A stretch of DNA of 64,000 nucleotides, taken from the sequence record OP555980.1; one strand, given 5' to 3'. Position numbers and translations under genes: made by a program. The notes below the pieces were generated by a model. That model made no database searches and had not been told where the DNA came from. It saw only the letters and a program-made list of their open reading frames with translations. This document shows positions 18,501 through 56,761 of the stretch, one piece after another. Positions within the stretch are counted from its first letter, which is position 1, and each line of letters starts with the position of its first letter. The DNA comes from Escherichia phage vB_EcoM-UFV06.

Positions 18501-18622
18501 TATTTGATGCATCTGGAACAACATTTGCACAATTTAGAGATTTAGTTAATAAACGTCTAAAAGATAATATAGGAAATCCAAGAGACCCTGAAAATCCAAC
18601 ACAGGTTAAAATAGATGAATGA
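15524..18622 (+). CDS. 7: gp7 baseplate wedge protein
   Basis: 1032 aa as T4 gp7; synteny. Confidence 0.85.
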   Translation: MTVKAPSVTSLRISKLSANQVQVRWDDVGANFYYFVEIAETKSNSGKNLPSNQYRWINLGYTANNSFFFDDADPLTSYVIRVATAAQDFEQSDWIYTEEFETFATNAYTFQNMIEMQLANKFIQEKFTLNNSDYVNFNNDTIMAALMNESFQFSPSYADVSSISNFIIGENEYHEIQGSIQQVCKDINRVYLMESEGILYLFERYQPVVKVSNDKGQTWKAVKLFNDRVGYPLSKTVYYQSANTTYVLGYDKIFYGRKSTDVRWSADDVRFSSQDITFAKLGDQLHLGFDVEIFATYATLPANVYRIAEAITCTDDYIYVVARDKVRYIKTSNAPIDSDPLSPTYSERLFEPDTMTITGNPKAVCYKMDSIGDKVFALIIGEVETLNANPRTSKIIDSADKGIYVLNHDTKTWKRVFGNTEEERRRIQPGYANMSTDGKLVSLSSSNFKFLSDNIVNDPETAVKYQLIDAVKYEFPREWLADKHYHMMAFIADEKSDWETFTPQPMKYYAEPFFNWSKKSNTRCWINNSDKAVVVYADLKYTKVIENIPETSPDRLVHEYWDDGDCTIVMPNVKFTGFKKYASGMLFYKSSGEIISYYDFNYRVRDTVEIIWKPTEVFLKAFLQNQERETPWSPEEERGLADPDLRPLIGTMMPDSYLLQDSNFEAFCEAYIQYLSDGYGTQYNNLRNLIRNQYPREEHAWEYLWSEIYKRNIYLNADKRDAVARFFESRSYDFYSTKGIEASYKFLFKVLYNEEVEIEIESGAGTEYDVIIQSDSLTEDLVGQTIYTATGRCNVTYIERSYSNGKLQWTVTIHNLLGRLIAGQEVKAERLPGFEGEIIRGVKGKDLLQNNIDYINRSRSYYVMKIKSNLPSSRWKSDVIRFVHPVGFGFIAITLLTMFINVGLTLKHTETIINKYKNYKWDSGLPTEYADRVAKLTPTGEIEHDSVTGEAIYEPGPMSGIEYPLPGDYNTENNNSVFQGQLPSERRKLMSPLFDASGTTFAQFRDLVNKRLKDNIGNPRDPENPTQVKIDE

Positions 18623-19718
18623 TTCAAGTGTTATCTATCGTGCGATAGTTACTTCAAAATTTAGAACAGAAAAAATGTTGAATTTTTATAATTCAATTGG
18701 AAGTGGTCCGGATAAAAACACTATCTTTATCACATTTGGAAGATCAGAACCGTGGTCATCAAATGAAAATGAGGTGGGCTTTGCCCCACCTTATCCTACC
18801 GATTCTGTATTAGGTGTAACTGACATGTGGACTCATATGATGGGAACAGTAAAAGTTCTTCCATCAATGCTTGATGCTGTTATTCCTCGCAGAGATTGGG
18901 GAGATACTAGATATCCGGATCCATACACATTTAGAATTAATGATATTGTAGTGTGCAACTCAGCTCCTTACAACGCTACTGAATCAGGCGCAGGCTGGTT
19001 AGTATATCGTTGTTTAGATGTTCCTGATACCGGAATGTGTTCAATAGCATCTTTAACTAATAAGGATGAATGTCTTAAATTAGGTGGAAAATGGACTCCT
19101 TCTGCTAGGTCAATGACTCCTCCTGAAGGCCGAGGAGATGCTGAAGGAACAATTGAACCTGGCGATGGATATGTATGGGAATATCTTTTTGAGATTCCGC
19201 CTGATGTATCTATAAATAGATGCACGAATGAGTATATTGTAGTTCCTTGGCCTGAGGAATTAAAAGAAGACCCGACTAGATGGGGGTATGAAGATAATCT
19301 CACTTGGCAGCAAGATGATTTTGGATTAATTTACCGTGTTAAGGCAAATACTATCCGTTTTAAAGCATATTTAGATTCAGTTTATTTTCCTGAAGCTGCA
19401 TTGCCGGGAAATAAAGGATTTAGACAAATATCAATAATTACGAATCCTCTTGAAGCTAAAGCTCATCCAAATGACCCAAATGATTTTCCTGAAGCTGCAT
19501 TGCCGGGAAATAAAGGATTTAGACAAATATCAATAATTACGAATCCTCTTGAAGCTAAAGCTCATCCAAATGACCCAAATGTTAAAGCTGAAAAGGATTA
19601 TTATGATCCGGAAGATTTAATGAGGCATTCGGGCGAAATGATTTATATGGAAAATAGGCCACCTATTATTATGGCAATGGATCAGACAGAAGAAATCAAT
19701 ATTCTGTTTACATTTTAA
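18615..19718 (+). CDS. 8: gp8 baseplate wedge protein carrying an in-frame 33-aa tandem duplication
   Basis: 367 aa versus 334 in T4 gp8 as I recall it; the excess is one extra copy of FPEAALPGNKGFRQISIITNPLEAKAHPNDPN. Confidence 0.85.
   Translation: MNDSSVIYRAIVTSKFRTEKMLNFYNSIGSGPDKNTIFITFGRSEPWSSNENEVGFAPPYPTDSVLGVTDMWTHMMGTVKVLPSMLDAVIPRRDWGDTRYPDPYTFRINDIVVCNSAPYNATESGAGWLVYRCLDVPDTGMCSIASLTNKDECLKLGGKWTPSARSMTPPEGRGDAEGTIEPGDGYVWEYLFEIPPDVSINRCTNEYIVVPWPEELKEDPTRWGYEDNLTWQQDDFGLIYRVKANTIRFKAYLDSVYFPEAALPGNKGFRQISIITNPLEAKAHPNDPNDFPEAALPGNKGFRQISIITNPLEAKAHPNDPNVKAEKDYYDPEDLMRHSGEMIYMENRPPIIMAMDQTEEINILFTF
19384..19581. repeat. perfect 99-bp direct tandem duplication (2 copies) inside gene 8
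   Basis: 19384-19482 and 19483-19581 identical base-for-base on hand alignment; flanking bases differ (19383 t vs 19482 g; 19483 a vs 19582 t). Confidence 0.9.
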
Positions 19719-23112: not shown

Positions 23113-24659
23113 GTAACAATACATATCAGCACGTATCAAATGAATCAAAATACGTTAAATTCGATCCTGCAGGATCGAATTTTCCTGACACTGTCACGAC
23201 AGTGCAGTCAGCATTATCAAAAATAAGTAATATCGGCGTAAATGGTATTCCTGATGCAACTATGGAAGTTAAAGGAATAGCAATGATTGCATCGGAGCAA
23301 GAGGTTTTAGATGGAACTAATAATTCTAAAATCGTTACACCAGCTACATTAGCAACAAGATTATTGTATCCAAATGCTACTGAAACTAAATATGGATTAA
23401 CGCGCTATTCAACAAATGAAGAAACTTTAGAAGGCTCAGATAATAATTCATCAATAACGCCGCAAAAACTGAAATACCATACTGACGATGTATTCCAAAA
23501 TAGGTATTCATCTGAATCATCAAATGGAGTTATTAAAATATCATCTACTCCTGCGGCTTTGGCTGGTATAGATGATACTACGGCGATGACTCCGTTGAAA
23601 ACCCAAAAACTCGCAATAAAATTAATTTCGCAAATAGCTCCTTCAGAAGACACAGCATCAGAATCTGTTAGAGGTGTAGTTCAGTTATCAACTGTCGCTC
23701 AAACTCGTCAAGGAACTCTCCGCGAAGGATATGCAATTTCTCCGTATACCTTTATGAATTCTGTTGCAACACAAGAATATAAGGGTGTTATACGTTTAGG
23801 AACACAATCAGAAATTAACAGTAATTTGGGAGATGTTGCAGTAACAGGTGAAACATTAAATGGTCGAGGAGCTACCGGTTCTATGCGTGGGGTAGTAAAA
23901 TTAACGACGCAAGCCGGTATTGCCCCTGAAGGTGATAGCTCTGGAGCATTAGCATGGAACGCAGATGTAATTAATACTCGCGGTGGACAAACTATTAATG
24001 GTTCTTTAAATTTAGATCATTTAACAGCAAATGGAATTTGGTCGCGCGGCGGAATGTGGAAAAATGGCGATCAACCTGTTGCCACTGAAAGATATGCGTC
24101 CGAAAGGGTTCCAGTTGGAACTATTATGATGTTTGCTGGAGATTCAGCTCCTCCTGGTTGGATTATGTGTCATGGTGGAACCGTGTCAGGAGATCAATAT
24201 CCTGATTATAGAAACACAGTTGGAACGAGATTTGGTGGCGATTGGAATAATCCTGGCATTCCTGATATGCGAGGTCTTTTCGTCAGAGGAGCTGGTACTG
24301 GTGGTCATATTTTAAATCAACGAGGGCAAGATGGTTACGGGAAGGATAGACTTGGTGTAGGATGTGACGGAATGCATGTTGGCGGTGTTCAAGCACAACA
24401 GATGTCATACCATAAACATGCTGGTGGTTGGGGAGAATACCAAAGACATGAAGCTCCATTTGGCGCGTCCGTTTATCAAGGATATCTTGGAACTAGAAAA
24501 TATGCCGACTGGGATAATGCTTCATACTTCACTAATGATGGATTTGAATTAGGTGGACCGAGAGATGCCCTTGGTACACTTAATCGTGAAGGATTAATTG
24601 GTTATGAAACTAGACCATGGAATATATCATTAAACTATATTATTAAAATTCATTACTAA
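23109..24659 (+). CDS. 12: gp12 short tail fibre
   Basis: 516 aa (T4 gp12 is 527); synteny between 11 and wac. Confidence 0.85.
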
Positions 24660-33084: not shown

Positions 33085-33151
33085 TATAAATACACTATAT
33101 CCTTAATTCTTTAATTCTATATGCCCTAGGTTAAACATAGGGATATAAATA
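33085..33151 (+). promoter_or_regulatory. two late-promoter motifs upstream of gene 19
   Basis: TATAAATA at 33085-33092 and 33144-33151. Confidence 0.5.
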
Positions 33152-41938: not shown

Positions 41939-42027
41939 GTTATTGAGTTGGTGCCATTATATACATCGTTTTCTGATTGTGTTTTGTGTGCTTTCAAAAT
42001 GAAGAAAGGGGCCGAAGCCCCTTACGA

Positions 42028-43445
42028 TTATGGATAGGTATAGATGATACCAGTTTCTAAAGCTGTTTTGTGAATGATGTATCCATTACGCGATTCTTGG
42101 ACATCAACTTCTGGATAGTCTTTCATCATCTTCTGAAGCGTATAACGATGCAAGTAGTACTTACTATCTGGGTCGTCAGTTTTCCAATCTTTACCTTCTT
42201 CAGTCATTTTTTGGATTTCATCCATAACCCACCAACCGCACCAGATATAAGCTGAAGTACGGTGCGGAAGAGGATGAACATAAGGCAATTCACCTTCTGG
42301 TTCTGGAGCAACTTTATCAGTCACTTGAACTTGACCTGTTGTTTTAACTGTTTTGCTATCATAATCAGTTGCTGTAACGACAGCAGTAACTTCAATAGTT
42401 TGACTTCCAACAGATGAGGTATCGACAGTATATACGTTAGTTGACCCTTCTACAGGAGAAGAATCTTTCTTCCACGAGTAAGTAATTTGTGCTTCTTCTG
42501 GAGCATCCGTAACATTAGCAGTAAATGTAGCCGAAGCATCTTGCTGAACGTTAATAGAAGGAGGAGTCAATGTAACCTGTGGATTCATTGTCTTCTTATT
42601 AACTGTCAATGATACTTCATTAGAAGTAACTTCCTTTTCATTGTAATTTTCTGCTGTTACTTGGGCTACGCATTTAATTCTTTTTACTCCACTTGTAGTT
42701 GGAGTATAGCTAAATGTAGAGTTAGTTTCTCCACCAACTTGTGAATCATCTACATACCATTTATATGTAGCAGACGCTCCATCAGGTTGAGAAGCTAAGG
42801 CAGCAGTAAATTGAACTGGGGTTCCAATTACTCCAGCTGAAGGACTAGCAGGAGTTACTGCCAATGTAGTTGTCTGTGTCTTTTTATTAACAGTCAGTGA
42901 TACTTCATTCGAAGTAACGGTTTTTTCATCATAATTTGTCGCGGTTACTTGAGCTACACACTTGATTTTTTTAACTCCGCTTGCGGCAGGAGTGTAATTG
43001 AATGTAGCAGAAGTCGCTTCGTCTACAGGAGAACTGTCAACGTACCATTGATACGTAGCAGATGCACCTGATGGCTGCGAAGCTAAAGCAGCGGTAAATT
43101 TAACAGCTGTTCCAATTACTCCTGCTGGAGGACTATTGGGAGTTACGGCTAAGGTAGTCGTCTGAGTTTTGTTTTTGACTGTGATAGTTGTAGTAGCTTC
43201 TGCTGTTTCAGCTTCAGATTCTGGAACTGTATTTGTTGCAACAACTTTAATAGTCTTTTGACCAGCAGGACCTTTTAATACATAATCAAAAGTTGCTTCA
43301 GACCCATCTTGTGGAGCATTATCTACACTCCAAGCATAAGTAATAGTTCCACCTCCAGTTTCACCACGGGTGCAGCAGTAAACTGCTTGGTTTCATCAAT
43401 AACTCCTGACGGTGCTTTAGGAGTTATATCAACTGTAAAAGCCAT
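42028..43445 (-). pseudogene. hoc: hoc (highly immunogenic outer capsid protein), interrupted by a frameshift near codon 29
   Basis: ATG at 43445 gives MAFTVDITPKAPSGVIDETKQFTAAP then stops at 43325-43323 after 40 codons; rest of Hoc (Ig-like domains and C-terminal ...PYVHPLPHRTSAYIWCGWWVMDEIQ...IIYTYP) is open in another frame from 43392 to 42028 with no ATG before a TTG at 42864; span is 1418 nt (2 mod 3). Confidence 0.7.
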
Positions 43446-43454
43446 AAGTTATCC

Positions 43455-44135
43455 TTATTTTAATGTTACGAAAGAAGAATTGCGTGTTTCACGAATTAAA
43501 ACTGATCCGTCGCGATTAATGTAATAAATTAAGCTAAACAAAGTTTGGTGTGCTGACGCGTGTTCAAAACTAGTTGGATGAGATTTCCAATCAGGAGTTT
43601 CAGCGATCCATTGATAAATCCACCAAGGAACCGTACAGAATCCTGGATTTTTCCCCAATAATTGAAGATTCGGGCTAAAGTTTTCCGGAAGAGTAAATAC
43701 AGACGGCTTTTCAGATTCAATAATCTCAGCTACAGCTTGTTCAAACTTTTCTTCAACAAAAGGAGTGTCTTCAATCAAAACATCAGTATTTTCAGGAATT
43801 TTATCCGTTTCTACAACTTCAATTTTAATATCAGATTTAACTGGAGAATCAATCAGAAGCGCTGCTTCTGGATTAACTTCTTCATCGTCATATTTTAATC
43901 CCTCTGCAGCATCAGCAGCATCAATTAAGTCTTTAATAGATAACCCATCAGTCTCTGGCATAGGTTCACTAGCGAGCTTCTGGAGGGCTTCTTCAATATC
44001 AACAACGATATTATCAAAAGATTTATTCTTTTTGACCTTTATACCAAACTGTTCAGCATATTCAGCTAATTTAGCTTTAGCTTCTTTATTATCATCAAGA
44101 GCCTTCAGCTCTGCAATATAATCTTTATCTATCAT
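43455..44135 (-). CDS. inh: Inh, inhibitor of prohead protease
   Basis: 226 aa as T4 Inh; position between hoc and uvsW. Confidence 0.7.
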   Translation of the reverse strand: MIDKDYIAELKALDDNKEAKAKLAEYAEQFGIKVKKNKSFDNIVVDIEEALQKLASEPMPETDGLSIKDLIDAADAAEGLKYDDEEVNPEAALLIDSPVKSDIKIEVVETDKIPENTDVLIEDTPFVEEKFEQAVAEIIESEKPSVFTLPENFSPNLQLLGKNPGFCTVPWWIYQWIAETPDWKSHPTSFEHASAHQTLFSLIYYINRDGSVLIRETRNSSFVTLK

Positions 44136-44150
44136 AATATTTCCTCAGTA

Positions 44151-44158
44151 TAAATATA
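44151..44158 (+). promoter_or_regulatory. late-promoter motif upstream of uvsW
   Basis: TATAAATA about 28 nt before ATG. Confidence 0.5.
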
Positions 44159-44185
44159 GATATATTTATTACATGGTATTTAGAC

Positions 44186-54703: not shown

Positions 54704-56761
54704 CTACATTTTGAACTTTTTAGACATTCCGTTGATGTTAACCAAAGAAGCTAAGATTTGAGAAACTTCGTTTTCCTCTTCTTTTGATTCTTCTACAAGG
54801 AATTGATTAAATCCAGCCATTGGACGAACTTCACCAGTTTCCATCAGATGGTCGCCATCATATACTGATTCTTCTAATTGTTCAGAAGGAGGAACGATTG
54901 TACCTTCGATTAGATACTTGTTATAAGCAGTTTCTTTCATCATGTACGTACTTACTTTATTAATCTTCAGTAAAATTCCACGCGGCAAAATAACTTCAGC
55001 TTCGGATGGAAATCCTGATAAATGACCTGGAACGATAACTTTAACTCGTTCAGCTCCTTTAATTACCATACCTACATTAGTTTCAGCGTCTTCATTCGCA
55101 TATGTAGAATGACTACCCATATGCATTAAATCTTCAGCATCAACTGAACCTTCTCCTTCACCAGAAAATACTGCTCCGGAATCATCTAAGGCCATATAAT
55201 TTTTACCATATTCACCGAAGATATTTGGCTTGAGTGAAGTAGATACAAAGTTCTTGAAATAGAACATTTTATTTTCTATATTATGACGTAAAGTTTTAAA
55301 GGTAACTTCTTGCCCACGATAAAGAGTAGTTCCTGGAGGAAGAACTGAACCTTTAGAAAATGCAGAATCCAGCGTCTCAATATGTTTAATAGCTCGTTCC
55401 ATATATTCTTCACGGGTAGAATCAGGTTTACCTAGAAGGAACGAGTTCATTTCAACATATGAATCTGCGCAATAATCTTCAATTACATCAGACTCAGCCT
55501 GAGTTAATCCTTTTGGAGTTACTTCAGTGCTTGCATATTCATATGCCTGAGCAGCAGATTCATCAATTAATTTATAAATTCCATTCATTACAAATTGAAT
55601 AATAGCTGTCTTTTCATCTGGTGTAGCTTTAGAACCTTTAACTAAATCATTGACAATTTTCTTAATAACATCAAAGCTATTAGAAATATTAATGTCAGCA
55701 AGATCGCTTAAAATTTTATCAGTTTTATAATCAAAGAATTCTTTATTCTTTAAATATTCTTGAGAACCTTGATATGTTATATCGCTCTGCAGCTTGATAG
55801 ATGGATCGCGTAAACGTGCATGGGCCAATGCAATATGATTTCGGAAGCTTTCGAGTTCATAATCACTAGATTTAAAACGAGAAGCACTTCTCATACCACC
55901 GATAGCTCCTTTGCTAAAGTTTGAACCAACCTGAATAACGCCAGAGTTCATTGGTCCTTCTGCTTTATATACCGGAACTTTAGATTCAAACTCTTGATAT
56001 TTCTTAGCAGCGAAGCTATCACCCTGAAGTGAAGCATCAACAGTAGAATATTGAGCTTGTGCTGCTAATCGACGACTAATTTTAGTTTTCTGAATAACAG
56101 CTTGATCCGTGCGCTTATCATTTTCTAAAGCAATAGAAGCAGCAACAGCAACAGCTTTAGGAACAGCATTACCTGTTTTAACGTCTACATAAACATCACC
56201 AACCTTTGATTCAACTTTTGTGAATAACTCGGTTGAAATAGGAGGTACACCTGGAATGTCTTCTAAATTGGCATTTTTACGGTAAACCATAATATATGCG
56301 TACTTTTTATCATAATCCCAGATTTCCTTTAAAAGAACATATCGACCTGCTCCTTTAGTACGTACTAAACGGTCAGCAATAACTTGCATTTGCCGAGCAG
56401 CGCCATTTGTTTTACTTTTTAGTACGCGGAATAAGCATGCATCAATTTTATACTGTTTCATTGTTTGAAGAGCAGTATCAAAAACAGCATTAATGACGCC
56501 AATTGGATTTCCACCCAAGTTTTTAAGCTTAACTAATGATAGTTTCTCATTAACACCTATCATTACGATATGCATCATTTTGTCGCCTGGCTTAACGTTT
56601 TTATTCGTATCACCGCCAGAGGTGTATGTACAAAATCTAAATCCAGGAAGCACGCTTTCTTCACCTGCTTGAATAGCAAAAATTTGAGGTATTTTATGCT
56701 TAGGATTTAAGTTAACAACCGGCGCCGAAGCGCCGTCAAATAATTCTGTAATAAGTTCCAT
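54704..56761 (-). CDS. Alt-like mono-ADP-ribosyltransferase, paralog 2
   Basis: 685 aa; N-terminus MELITELFD shared with neighbour; Arg-STS-ExE signature (LYRGQ, FVSTSL, SEAEVILPRG). Confidence 0.8.
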   Translation of the reverse strand: MELITELFDGASAPVVNLNPKHKIPQIFAIQAGEESVLPGFRFCTYTSGGDTNKNVKPGDKMMHIVMIGVNEKLSLVKLKNLGGNPIGVINAVFDTALQTMKQYKIDACLFRVLKSKTNGAARQMQVIADRLVRTKGAGRYVLLKEIWDYDKKYAYIMVYRKNANLEDIPGVPPISTELFTKVESKVGDVYVDVKTGNAVPKAVAVAASIALENDKRTDQAVIQKTKISRRLAAQAQYSTVDASLQGDSFAAKKYQEFESKVPVYKAEGPMNSGVIQVGSNFSKGAIGGMRSASRFKSSDYELESFRNHIALAHARLRDPSIKLQSDITYQGSQEYLKNKEFFDYKTDKILSDLADINISNSFDVIKKIVNDLVKGSKATPDEKTAIIQFVMNGIYKLIDESAAQAYEYASTEVTPKGLTQAESDVIEDYCADSYVEMNSFLLGKPDSTREEYMERAIKHIETLDSAFSKGSVLPPGTTLYRGQEVTFKTLRHNIENKMFYFKNFVSTSLKPNIFGEYGKNYMALDDSGAVFSGEGEGSVDAEDLMHMGSHSTYANEDAETNVGMVIKGAERVKVIVPGHLSGFPSEAEVILPRGILLKINKVSTYMMKETAYNKYLIEGTIVPPSEQLEESVYDGDHLMETGEVRPMAGFNQFLVEESKEEENEVSQILASLVNINGMSKKFKM

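Follow-up and report, generated by a model that had tools for sequence, protein, structure and literature searches.

Hoc is a highly antigenic and highly immunogenic outer capsid protein, which forms roughly 155 fibres located at the centre of gp23 hexamers. In phage T4, null mutations of hoc leave phage production, viability and infectivity unaffected (PMC3012670). The protein mediates adherence of the phage to mucus and to fucosylated glycans: it binds the latter, and glycan binding is weaker in delta-hoc phage (PMC9271167). It also keeps virions dispersed, and when particles without Hoc are stored their plaque titre falls, apparently via clustering (PMC10385173). Several T-even phages devoid of Hoc have been described. 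T4 HAP1 (T4 delta-Hoc), which has a Hoc-less capsid, arose by a spontaneous CAA->TAA change in hoc and was found after selection on mammalian cells; the mutation, C496T, places an ochre codon at 44% of the 376-amino-acid gene (PMC10580926). Phage T2 is naturally Hoc-defective: its hoc (PV958097.1) is annotated in three fragments and bears several lesions, including deletions of 11 bp, 1 bp and 2 bp. Finally, T4 itself was engineered by designed hoc deletions or amber mutations into display strains, the capsids of which are Hoc-less and infectious and have their Hoc-binding sites free.

A broken hoc is not very unusual among T4-like phages. A single-base frameshift splits the gene in Shigella phage SfPhi01 (one G added after nucleotide 756, in a GG run), in Escherichia phage UPWr_E2 (one A lost from an A7 run at nucleotide 475) and in IMG/VR sequence 2700989062 (near codon 146). 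The IMG/VR set comprised 21 hoc loci: 19 were read at full length, with 18 intact genes of 279 to 472 codons and the one just mentioned, frameshifted near codon 146; one further locus was cut by a contig end and two matches were partial. Two of 60 Tequatrovirus records, sampled evenly, have a split annotation of hoc; this figure and that of one frameshifted gene in 19 are to be taken as rough estimates. Annotation pipelines label the fragments of these other broken hoc genes as ordinary capsid proteins.

The locus studied here belongs to a stretch of 64,000 nucleotides, hereafter the window, of Escherichia phage vB_EcoM-UFV06 (OP555980.1), which megablast identified as a Tequatrovirus of the vB_EcoM-UFV05 type. 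The gene order is that of T4, i.e. uvsW, inh, hoc, 24.3-24.2-like genes, RNA ligase 2 and gene 24; hoc lies between inh and the latter group and opposite uvsW. The features on which the following discussion relies are listed below.

42006-42023, minus strand: hairpin resembling an intrinsic terminator (AAGGGGC TTCG GCCCCTT, with a T-rich tail) just past the hoc stop codon
42028-43392, minus strand: body of hoc in the -1 frame, coding for Hoc residues 28-472 and ending with TAA at 42030-42028; intact, including the C-terminal capsid-binding domain and its ESRNG motif
42589-43164, minus strand: two tandem units of 288 nt, 75% identical in DNA and 79% in protein, each coding for one Ig-like/PKD domain
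43258-43260, minus strand: hoc codon 63, CAA (Gln), wild type in the window and TAA (ochre) in UFV09, UFV10 and UFV11
43323-43445, minus strand: truncated 5' hoc ORF, with its ATG at 43445-43443, 26 native codons, 14 out-of-frame codons and TAG at 43325-43323
43367-43368, minus strand: deletion junction, from which the A of AGT (Ser, codon 27) is missing (GCA CCC^GTG GTG AAA)
43452-43456, minus strand: AAGGA resembling a Shine-Dalgarno sequence, 6 nt before the ATG of hoc, as read from the sequence
43455-44135, minus strand: inh (inhibitor of prohead protease), the intact upstream neighbour of hoc

An earlier note, written from the letters of the window and a list of its ORFs, had described a 40-codon ORF running from the ATG at 43445 to the TAG at 43325-43323, within a hoc of 1418 nt (2 mod 3) from ATG to stop; translation of the ORFs reproduced all of this. 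The 40-amino-acid product consists of MAFTVDITPKAPSGVIDETKQFTAAP followed by 14 out-of-frame residues (VVKLEVELLLMLGV) before the TAG, and would be a peptide of 4.3 kDa. Exactly this product is found under two NCBI accessions, UYE93151.1 and UYL84044.1, the former from the UFV05 record, where it is annotated as 'head decoration protein'; the interruption is no product of chance. Because AAGGA precedes the ATG by 6 nt, initiation on the truncated ORF should be normal; the inh stop codon also lies just before this ATG. The motif TATAAATA of T4 late promoters occurs 24 times in the window for 8.8 expected (e.g. at 33085, 33144, 33705, 37340, 39096 and 44149). The copy at 44149-44156, on the plus strand, faces uvsW; upstream of inh-hoc, on the minus strand, no exact TATAAATA was found, only a AATAAATA-like variant near 44170.

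The lesion was mapped by DNA alignment and with MAFFT against the intact 472-codon hoc of phage ECP52 (98.6% identical) and that of the sister phage UFV09, the alignment of the 5' part also taking in UFV05. Exactly one base is missing, nucleotide 79 of the gene, i.e. the A of Ser27, between positions 43368 and 43367, so that CCC AGT GGT becomes CCC GTG GTG. The gap is common to the window and UFV05, while both ECP52 and UFV09 read CCC AGT GGT GAA, and alignment of the whole genes with MAFFT revealed no further indel with respect to the intact gene. The missing A would sit alone between CCC and GTG: a CCC run adjoins it, but it belongs to no run of A. The 1-bp deletion that the note had proposed was thus borne out, as was, to the letter, the repair it had guessed (CCC AGT GGT); its position had to be moved from near codon 29 to codon 27. 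The note had likened the restored sequence, P-S-G-E-T-G-G-G, to the T4 N-terminus; T4 Hoc reads T-P-S-G-Q-T-G-G-G at this point. As for the remainder of the gene, which was said to be open from 43392 to 42028 and devoid of ATG, the frame is indeed intact (its translation gives ...GETGGGTITYAWSVDN...ESRNGYIIHKTALETGIIYTYP), but it contains internal methionines, at residues 287, 408, 414, 440 and 441. Instead of one uninterrupted ORF, the gene has a break at codon 27 and a stop at codon 41; judged by its reading frames, it is a pseudogene or null allele without functional status.

Restoring the A yields an ORF of 472 codons that matches T4 Hoc end to end. The repaired protein has a computed mass of 50.6 kDa and a computed pI of 4.8. 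It aligns with T4 Hoc (PDB 5vf3_Z) over residues 1-103 and 189-472 with an E-value of 4e-219, the N-terminal part of the alignment including MTFTVDITPKTPTGVIDETKQFTATPSGQTGGG, and it matches PHROG 1149, 'Hoc-like head decoration', with an E-value of 4e-144. Against Pfam, a PKD match was obtained (E = 4e-10) together with weaker matches to PKD_4, Ig_2 and Ig_3. The C-terminus, ...EVDVQESRNGYIIHKTALETGIIYTYP, shows a single substitution relative to T4 across the last 78 residues, and comprises the ESRNG motif described for the capsid-binding domain of Hoc (PMC10385173). The protein possesses four Ig-like domains in 472 residues against three in the 376 residues of T4 Hoc, the fourth being due to the 288-nt tandem unit. 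Among related phages, hoc is 279, about 367-378 or 471-472 codons long, which indicates that the number of Ig-like domains changes by duplication or loss of whole domains.

Comparison of the hoc region with other phages gave 100% identity with UFV05 (OP572230.1; wastewater, Brazil), 99.9% with UFV09, UFV10 and UFV11, and 98.6% with ECP52, whose hoc is annotated as one gene of 472 codons. The four UFV phages named here all come from one laboratory. The window is not identical to OP572230.1, from which it differs at gp8 and at gp12 (position 24504, G vs A). UFV09, UFV10 and UFV11 retain the A of Ser27 and carry instead CAA->TAA at codon 63 (plus strand 43260, G vs A); their records annotate a hoc fragment of 62 codons. 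ECP52 holds both ancestral states, i.e. the A is present and codon 63 is CAA. Since both intact states are found in ECP52, and since a precise reversion would be needed to pass from one lesion to the other, the alignments indicate that hoc was still intact in the ancestor which the UFV phages share and that the two knockouts arose independently.

The complete genomes of UFV05 and UFV09 were compared base by base. They differ by 13 SNPs and 5 indels, i.e. 18 differences in 166 kb, and the only other 1-bp indel lies in an intergenic A run (A8/A7). Two of the 18 differences fall in hoc, which represents 0.86% of the genome, and both are null; the probability of at least two of the 18 falling there is 0.010. 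Ten of the SNPs are non-synonymous and three synonymous, the latter in rIIA, agt and an alt-like gene (window position 56555, minus strand: A/G vs UFV09, Gly69). So few synonymous differences, such as that at 56555, imply that the siblings are very recent relatives and not a single clone. Most of what separates the siblings lies in proteins of the virion surface and of adsorption. Missense changes affect codons 463, 465 and 466, a span of four codons in the C-terminal part of gp12, the short tail fibre (window positions 24495, 24501 and 24504): UFV09 has R463G and Y465H, the UFV05 record has A466T, and the window has the ancestral state, as does ECP52. Others are G363E, E944Q and S950G in gp37, of the long tail fibre (outside the window), two changes at codons 83 and 86 of a 161-amino-acid protein, and S51N in motA. 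The clusters in gp12 and gp37 look like rapid host-range adaptation.

The records of these phages hold other irregularities. In the UFV05 record, a 7-bp tandem duplication, ACAATCC (OP572230.1 1484-1490), frameshifts rIIA, a gene which is intact and 725 codons long in UFV09; counting the hoc lesion, the deposited UFV05 is doubly mutant, each time in a classic dispensable gene. Gene 8 is an essential baseplate gene, and the gp8 ORF of the window (18615-19718, plus strand) contains at 19384-19581 an exact 99-bp tandem duplication, in frame, which adds 33 amino acids. At this site, the UFV05 record has a 9-bp duplication and UFV09 neither; none of the best 12 of 607 matching phage records spanned the 99-bp duplication in one piece, and no record exists of the 367-amino-acid gp8 product. 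UFV09 possesses an exact 99-bp tandem duplication of its own, in gp34. Both duplications are probably the k=99 end overlap left by the assembler in a re-oriented circular contig, and the fact that they were left in shows that curation of the assemblies was imperfect.

In our opinion the window very probably bears a genuine, spontaneous loss-of-function allele of hoc, caused by the 1-bp deletion and resulting in Hoc-less capsids. We favour this reading because the deleted A lies in no homopolymer, because 1-bp indels are rare genome-wide and because the hoc of the sister phages is independently null; the rIIA duplication of UFV05, typical of spontaneous mutation and not of a sequencing artefact, was counted as further support. 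Of the three scenarios which the earlier note had left side by side, a genuine null mutation is accordingly the one that fares best, given the absence of a homopolymer of the deleted base, the existence of only one other 1-bp indel and the nonsense codon of the sisters. The homopolymer sequencing error that it had also envisaged is disfavoured, the indel not being inside a run of the same base. An error of sequencing, assembly or consensus of whatever kind is the main rival; it would mean that hoc is in reality intact, with 472 codons, and that the capsids are decorated with Hoc, and it appears to us unlikely. Single-base indels are the most frequent consensus error, the deleted base does adjoin a CCC run, the sibling assemblies contain uncurated artefacts (the exact 99-bp duplications and a 9-bp leftover in gp8), and there are deposited Tequatrovirus hoc frameshifts located in homopolymers, those of UPWr_E2 (A7) and SfPhi01 (GG). 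However, the deleted A is itself outside any homopolymer. There are just two 1-bp indels between UFV05 and UFV09, and a random error had a chance of only about 0.9% of hitting hoc. Moreover, the hoc of the sisters is null by a substitution, which is atypical of a sequencing artefact; the deletion is present in two deposited records that differ elsewhere, the window and OP572230.1, although these may derive from the same reads; and the 99-bp end-overlap duplications would fit a k-mer-based short-read assembly, a procedure in which indel errors are rare.

If the deletion is accepted as real, one may ask if Hoc could nevertheless be made, either at full length through -1 ribosomal frameshifting or transcriptional slippage, or as a truncated capsid-binding form through re-initiation. 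The arrangement seems at first sight suitable: the body of hoc, read in the -1 frame, shares about 70 nt with the short ORF, the lesion spares the capsid-binding domain at the C-terminus (PMC10385173), and PHANOTATE called a 278-amino-acid ORF starting with TTG. Yet we consider it very improbable. The 70-nt overlap (43392-43323), within which any -1 shift would restore the Hoc frame, contains neither an X_XXY_YYZ heptamer nor a run of at least four identical bases, and conservation of the two-frame split is lacking: hoc is one ORF in ECP52 and in T4, UFV09 has the A, the ORF is undivided here in every close relative read outside the UFV group, and the arrangement is absent at this site from the 19 full-length IMG/VR genes (the one frameshifted gene being interrupted elsewhere, near codon 146), while the locus cut by a contig end is intact through the lesion site. 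Recoding was rejected on these two grounds. As to a restart, the Hoc frame is free of ATG, GTG and TTG for 176 codons after it opens, as far as the TTG at 42864; its first ATG is Met287, and by inspection neither this ATG nor the TTG at 42864 is preceded by a convincing, well-spaced Shine-Dalgarno sequence. Weak internal initiation, e.g. at Met287, could give a short capsid-binding fragment. With no slippery site, no conservation and no nearby start codon, the allele was treated as null. Even less credible, to the point of being hardly worth retaining, is the idea, raised in the earlier note, that the phage is a display or other laboratory derivative deliberately made hoc-minus. It is true that hoc-minus T4 strains are a standard chassis for capsid display (PMC3012670). 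But according to the records the isolates come from wastewater and a river at Vicosa, Brazil, and are used in work on biofilms and mastitis, the backbone is not that of T4 and the hoc carries an extra Ig-like domain; the lesion is a single-base deletion, and that of the siblings another point lesion, neither of them a designed deletion or an amber codon. This origin was rejected for an environmental isolate with a point deletion.

The preferred reading, a genuine null allele, would have the following consequences. Ribosomes would start normally at 43445, read the 26 native codons, shift out of frame relative to Hoc and terminate after 40 codons in all. Beyond the lesion, the 445 codons that encode the four Ig-like domains and the capsid-binding domain are intact, but with no usable start nearby no Hoc would be produced. 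Virions would then assemble normally, without the roughly 155 fibres at the gp23 hexamer centres. The absence of Hoc is predicted from the consensus sequence, and the expectation of normal viability is by analogy with the hoc-null mutants of T4. Such virions would be expected to show less Hoc-mediated adherence to glycans and mucus, lower immunogenicity and more aggregation. A Soc-like ORF, found in UFV05 with an approximate T4 Soc sequence as query, is intact, and the predicted particle is Hoc-minus, Soc-plus.

The separate inactivation of hoc in two sister lineages suggests that its loss was favoured, or at least cost-free, while this phage stock was isolated and propagated. We may only tentatively go further and propose that the loss was positively selected in this lineage, the Ig-like fibres being a liability on the isolation host or in the source water; this is possible, if somewhat doubtful. 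The proposal is based on the occurrence of two early hoc knockouts among about 18 differences, together with the clusters in the tips of gp12 (463-466) and gp37 (944, 950); most of the other non-synonymous differences between the siblings are clustered in these receptor-contacting tips, and the parallel loss of hoc alongside them hints at selection on virion surface proteins. The ratio of 10 non-synonymous to 3 synonymous changes is what is expected without constraint, so that only the clustering speaks for selection. A transposon screen of T4, in which insertions in inh, hoc and uvsW were depleted (bioRxiv 10.1101/2025.11.20.689424), argues against a general benefit of hoc disruption. The isolation host of UFV09 was a biofilm-forming mastitis E. 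coli, and if selection did operate, Hoc may, for example, stick virions to matrix or surface glycans; it would then be a conditionally costly adhesin, quickly shed, and not just a dispensable ornament. Recognition of Hoc as the trigger of a bacterial defence system was considered as a cause of selected loss and set aside, nothing relevant having been found in the literature. For UFV05, UFV09, UFV10 and UFV11, the literature search yielded a single paper, on optimising UFV09 production, in which hoc is not mentioned; a paper in Heliyon concerns UFV13.

These considerations have a practical side. The UFV phages are in development for the control of biofilms and mastitis, and the presence or absence of Hoc bears on their mucosal retention, storage behaviour and immunogenicity. 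Public annotation hides the defect, the fragments being labelled 'head decoration protein' or 'capsid and scaffold protein'. With their two independent knockouts, the near-identical siblings constitute a cheap and testable case for finding out when Hoc is costly, and they offer what is predicted to be a ready-made capsid devoid of Hoc, on a hoc backbone with four Ig domains.

How does this allele compare with those already described? With the Q63* allele of UFV09, UFV10 and UFV11 it shares the lineage (about 99.99% identity), the gene and the consequence, the two lesions being 108 nt apart, but the former is a substitution and mutually exclusive with the deletion of the window. T4 HAP1 resembles it in having a spontaneous point lesion in hoc and in giving viable T-even virions without Hoc (PMC10580926); the change in HAP1 is, however, of the type found in the three sisters, whereas the window has a 1-bp deletion, at codon 27, in a 472-codon hoc and in a Brazilian wastewater isolate. 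T2 is, like this phage, a naturally Hoc-defective T-even, but its multiple lesions denote an old, decayed pseudogene, while the single lesion of the window, with the rest of the gene intact, points to a very recent event. SfPhi01, UPWr_E2 and IMG/VR sequence 2700989062 have in common with the window a single-base frameshift that splits hoc; those of SfPhi01 and UPWr_E2 are located in homopolymer runs and further into the gene, that of the window at codon 27 and outside a run of the deleted base. The engineered display strains of T4 share with it the Hoc-less infectious capsid with free Hoc-binding sites, which for the window is a prediction; they are of designed origin, in contrast to a spontaneous lesion in an environmental Tequatrovirus. 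Since Hoc-null phages were known already, in the form of T4 HAP1, T2 and the display strains, we have here an otherwise ordinary null in a gene whose dispensability was established long ago; what it adds to them is that sister isolates, nearly identical, carry a second and independent knockout.
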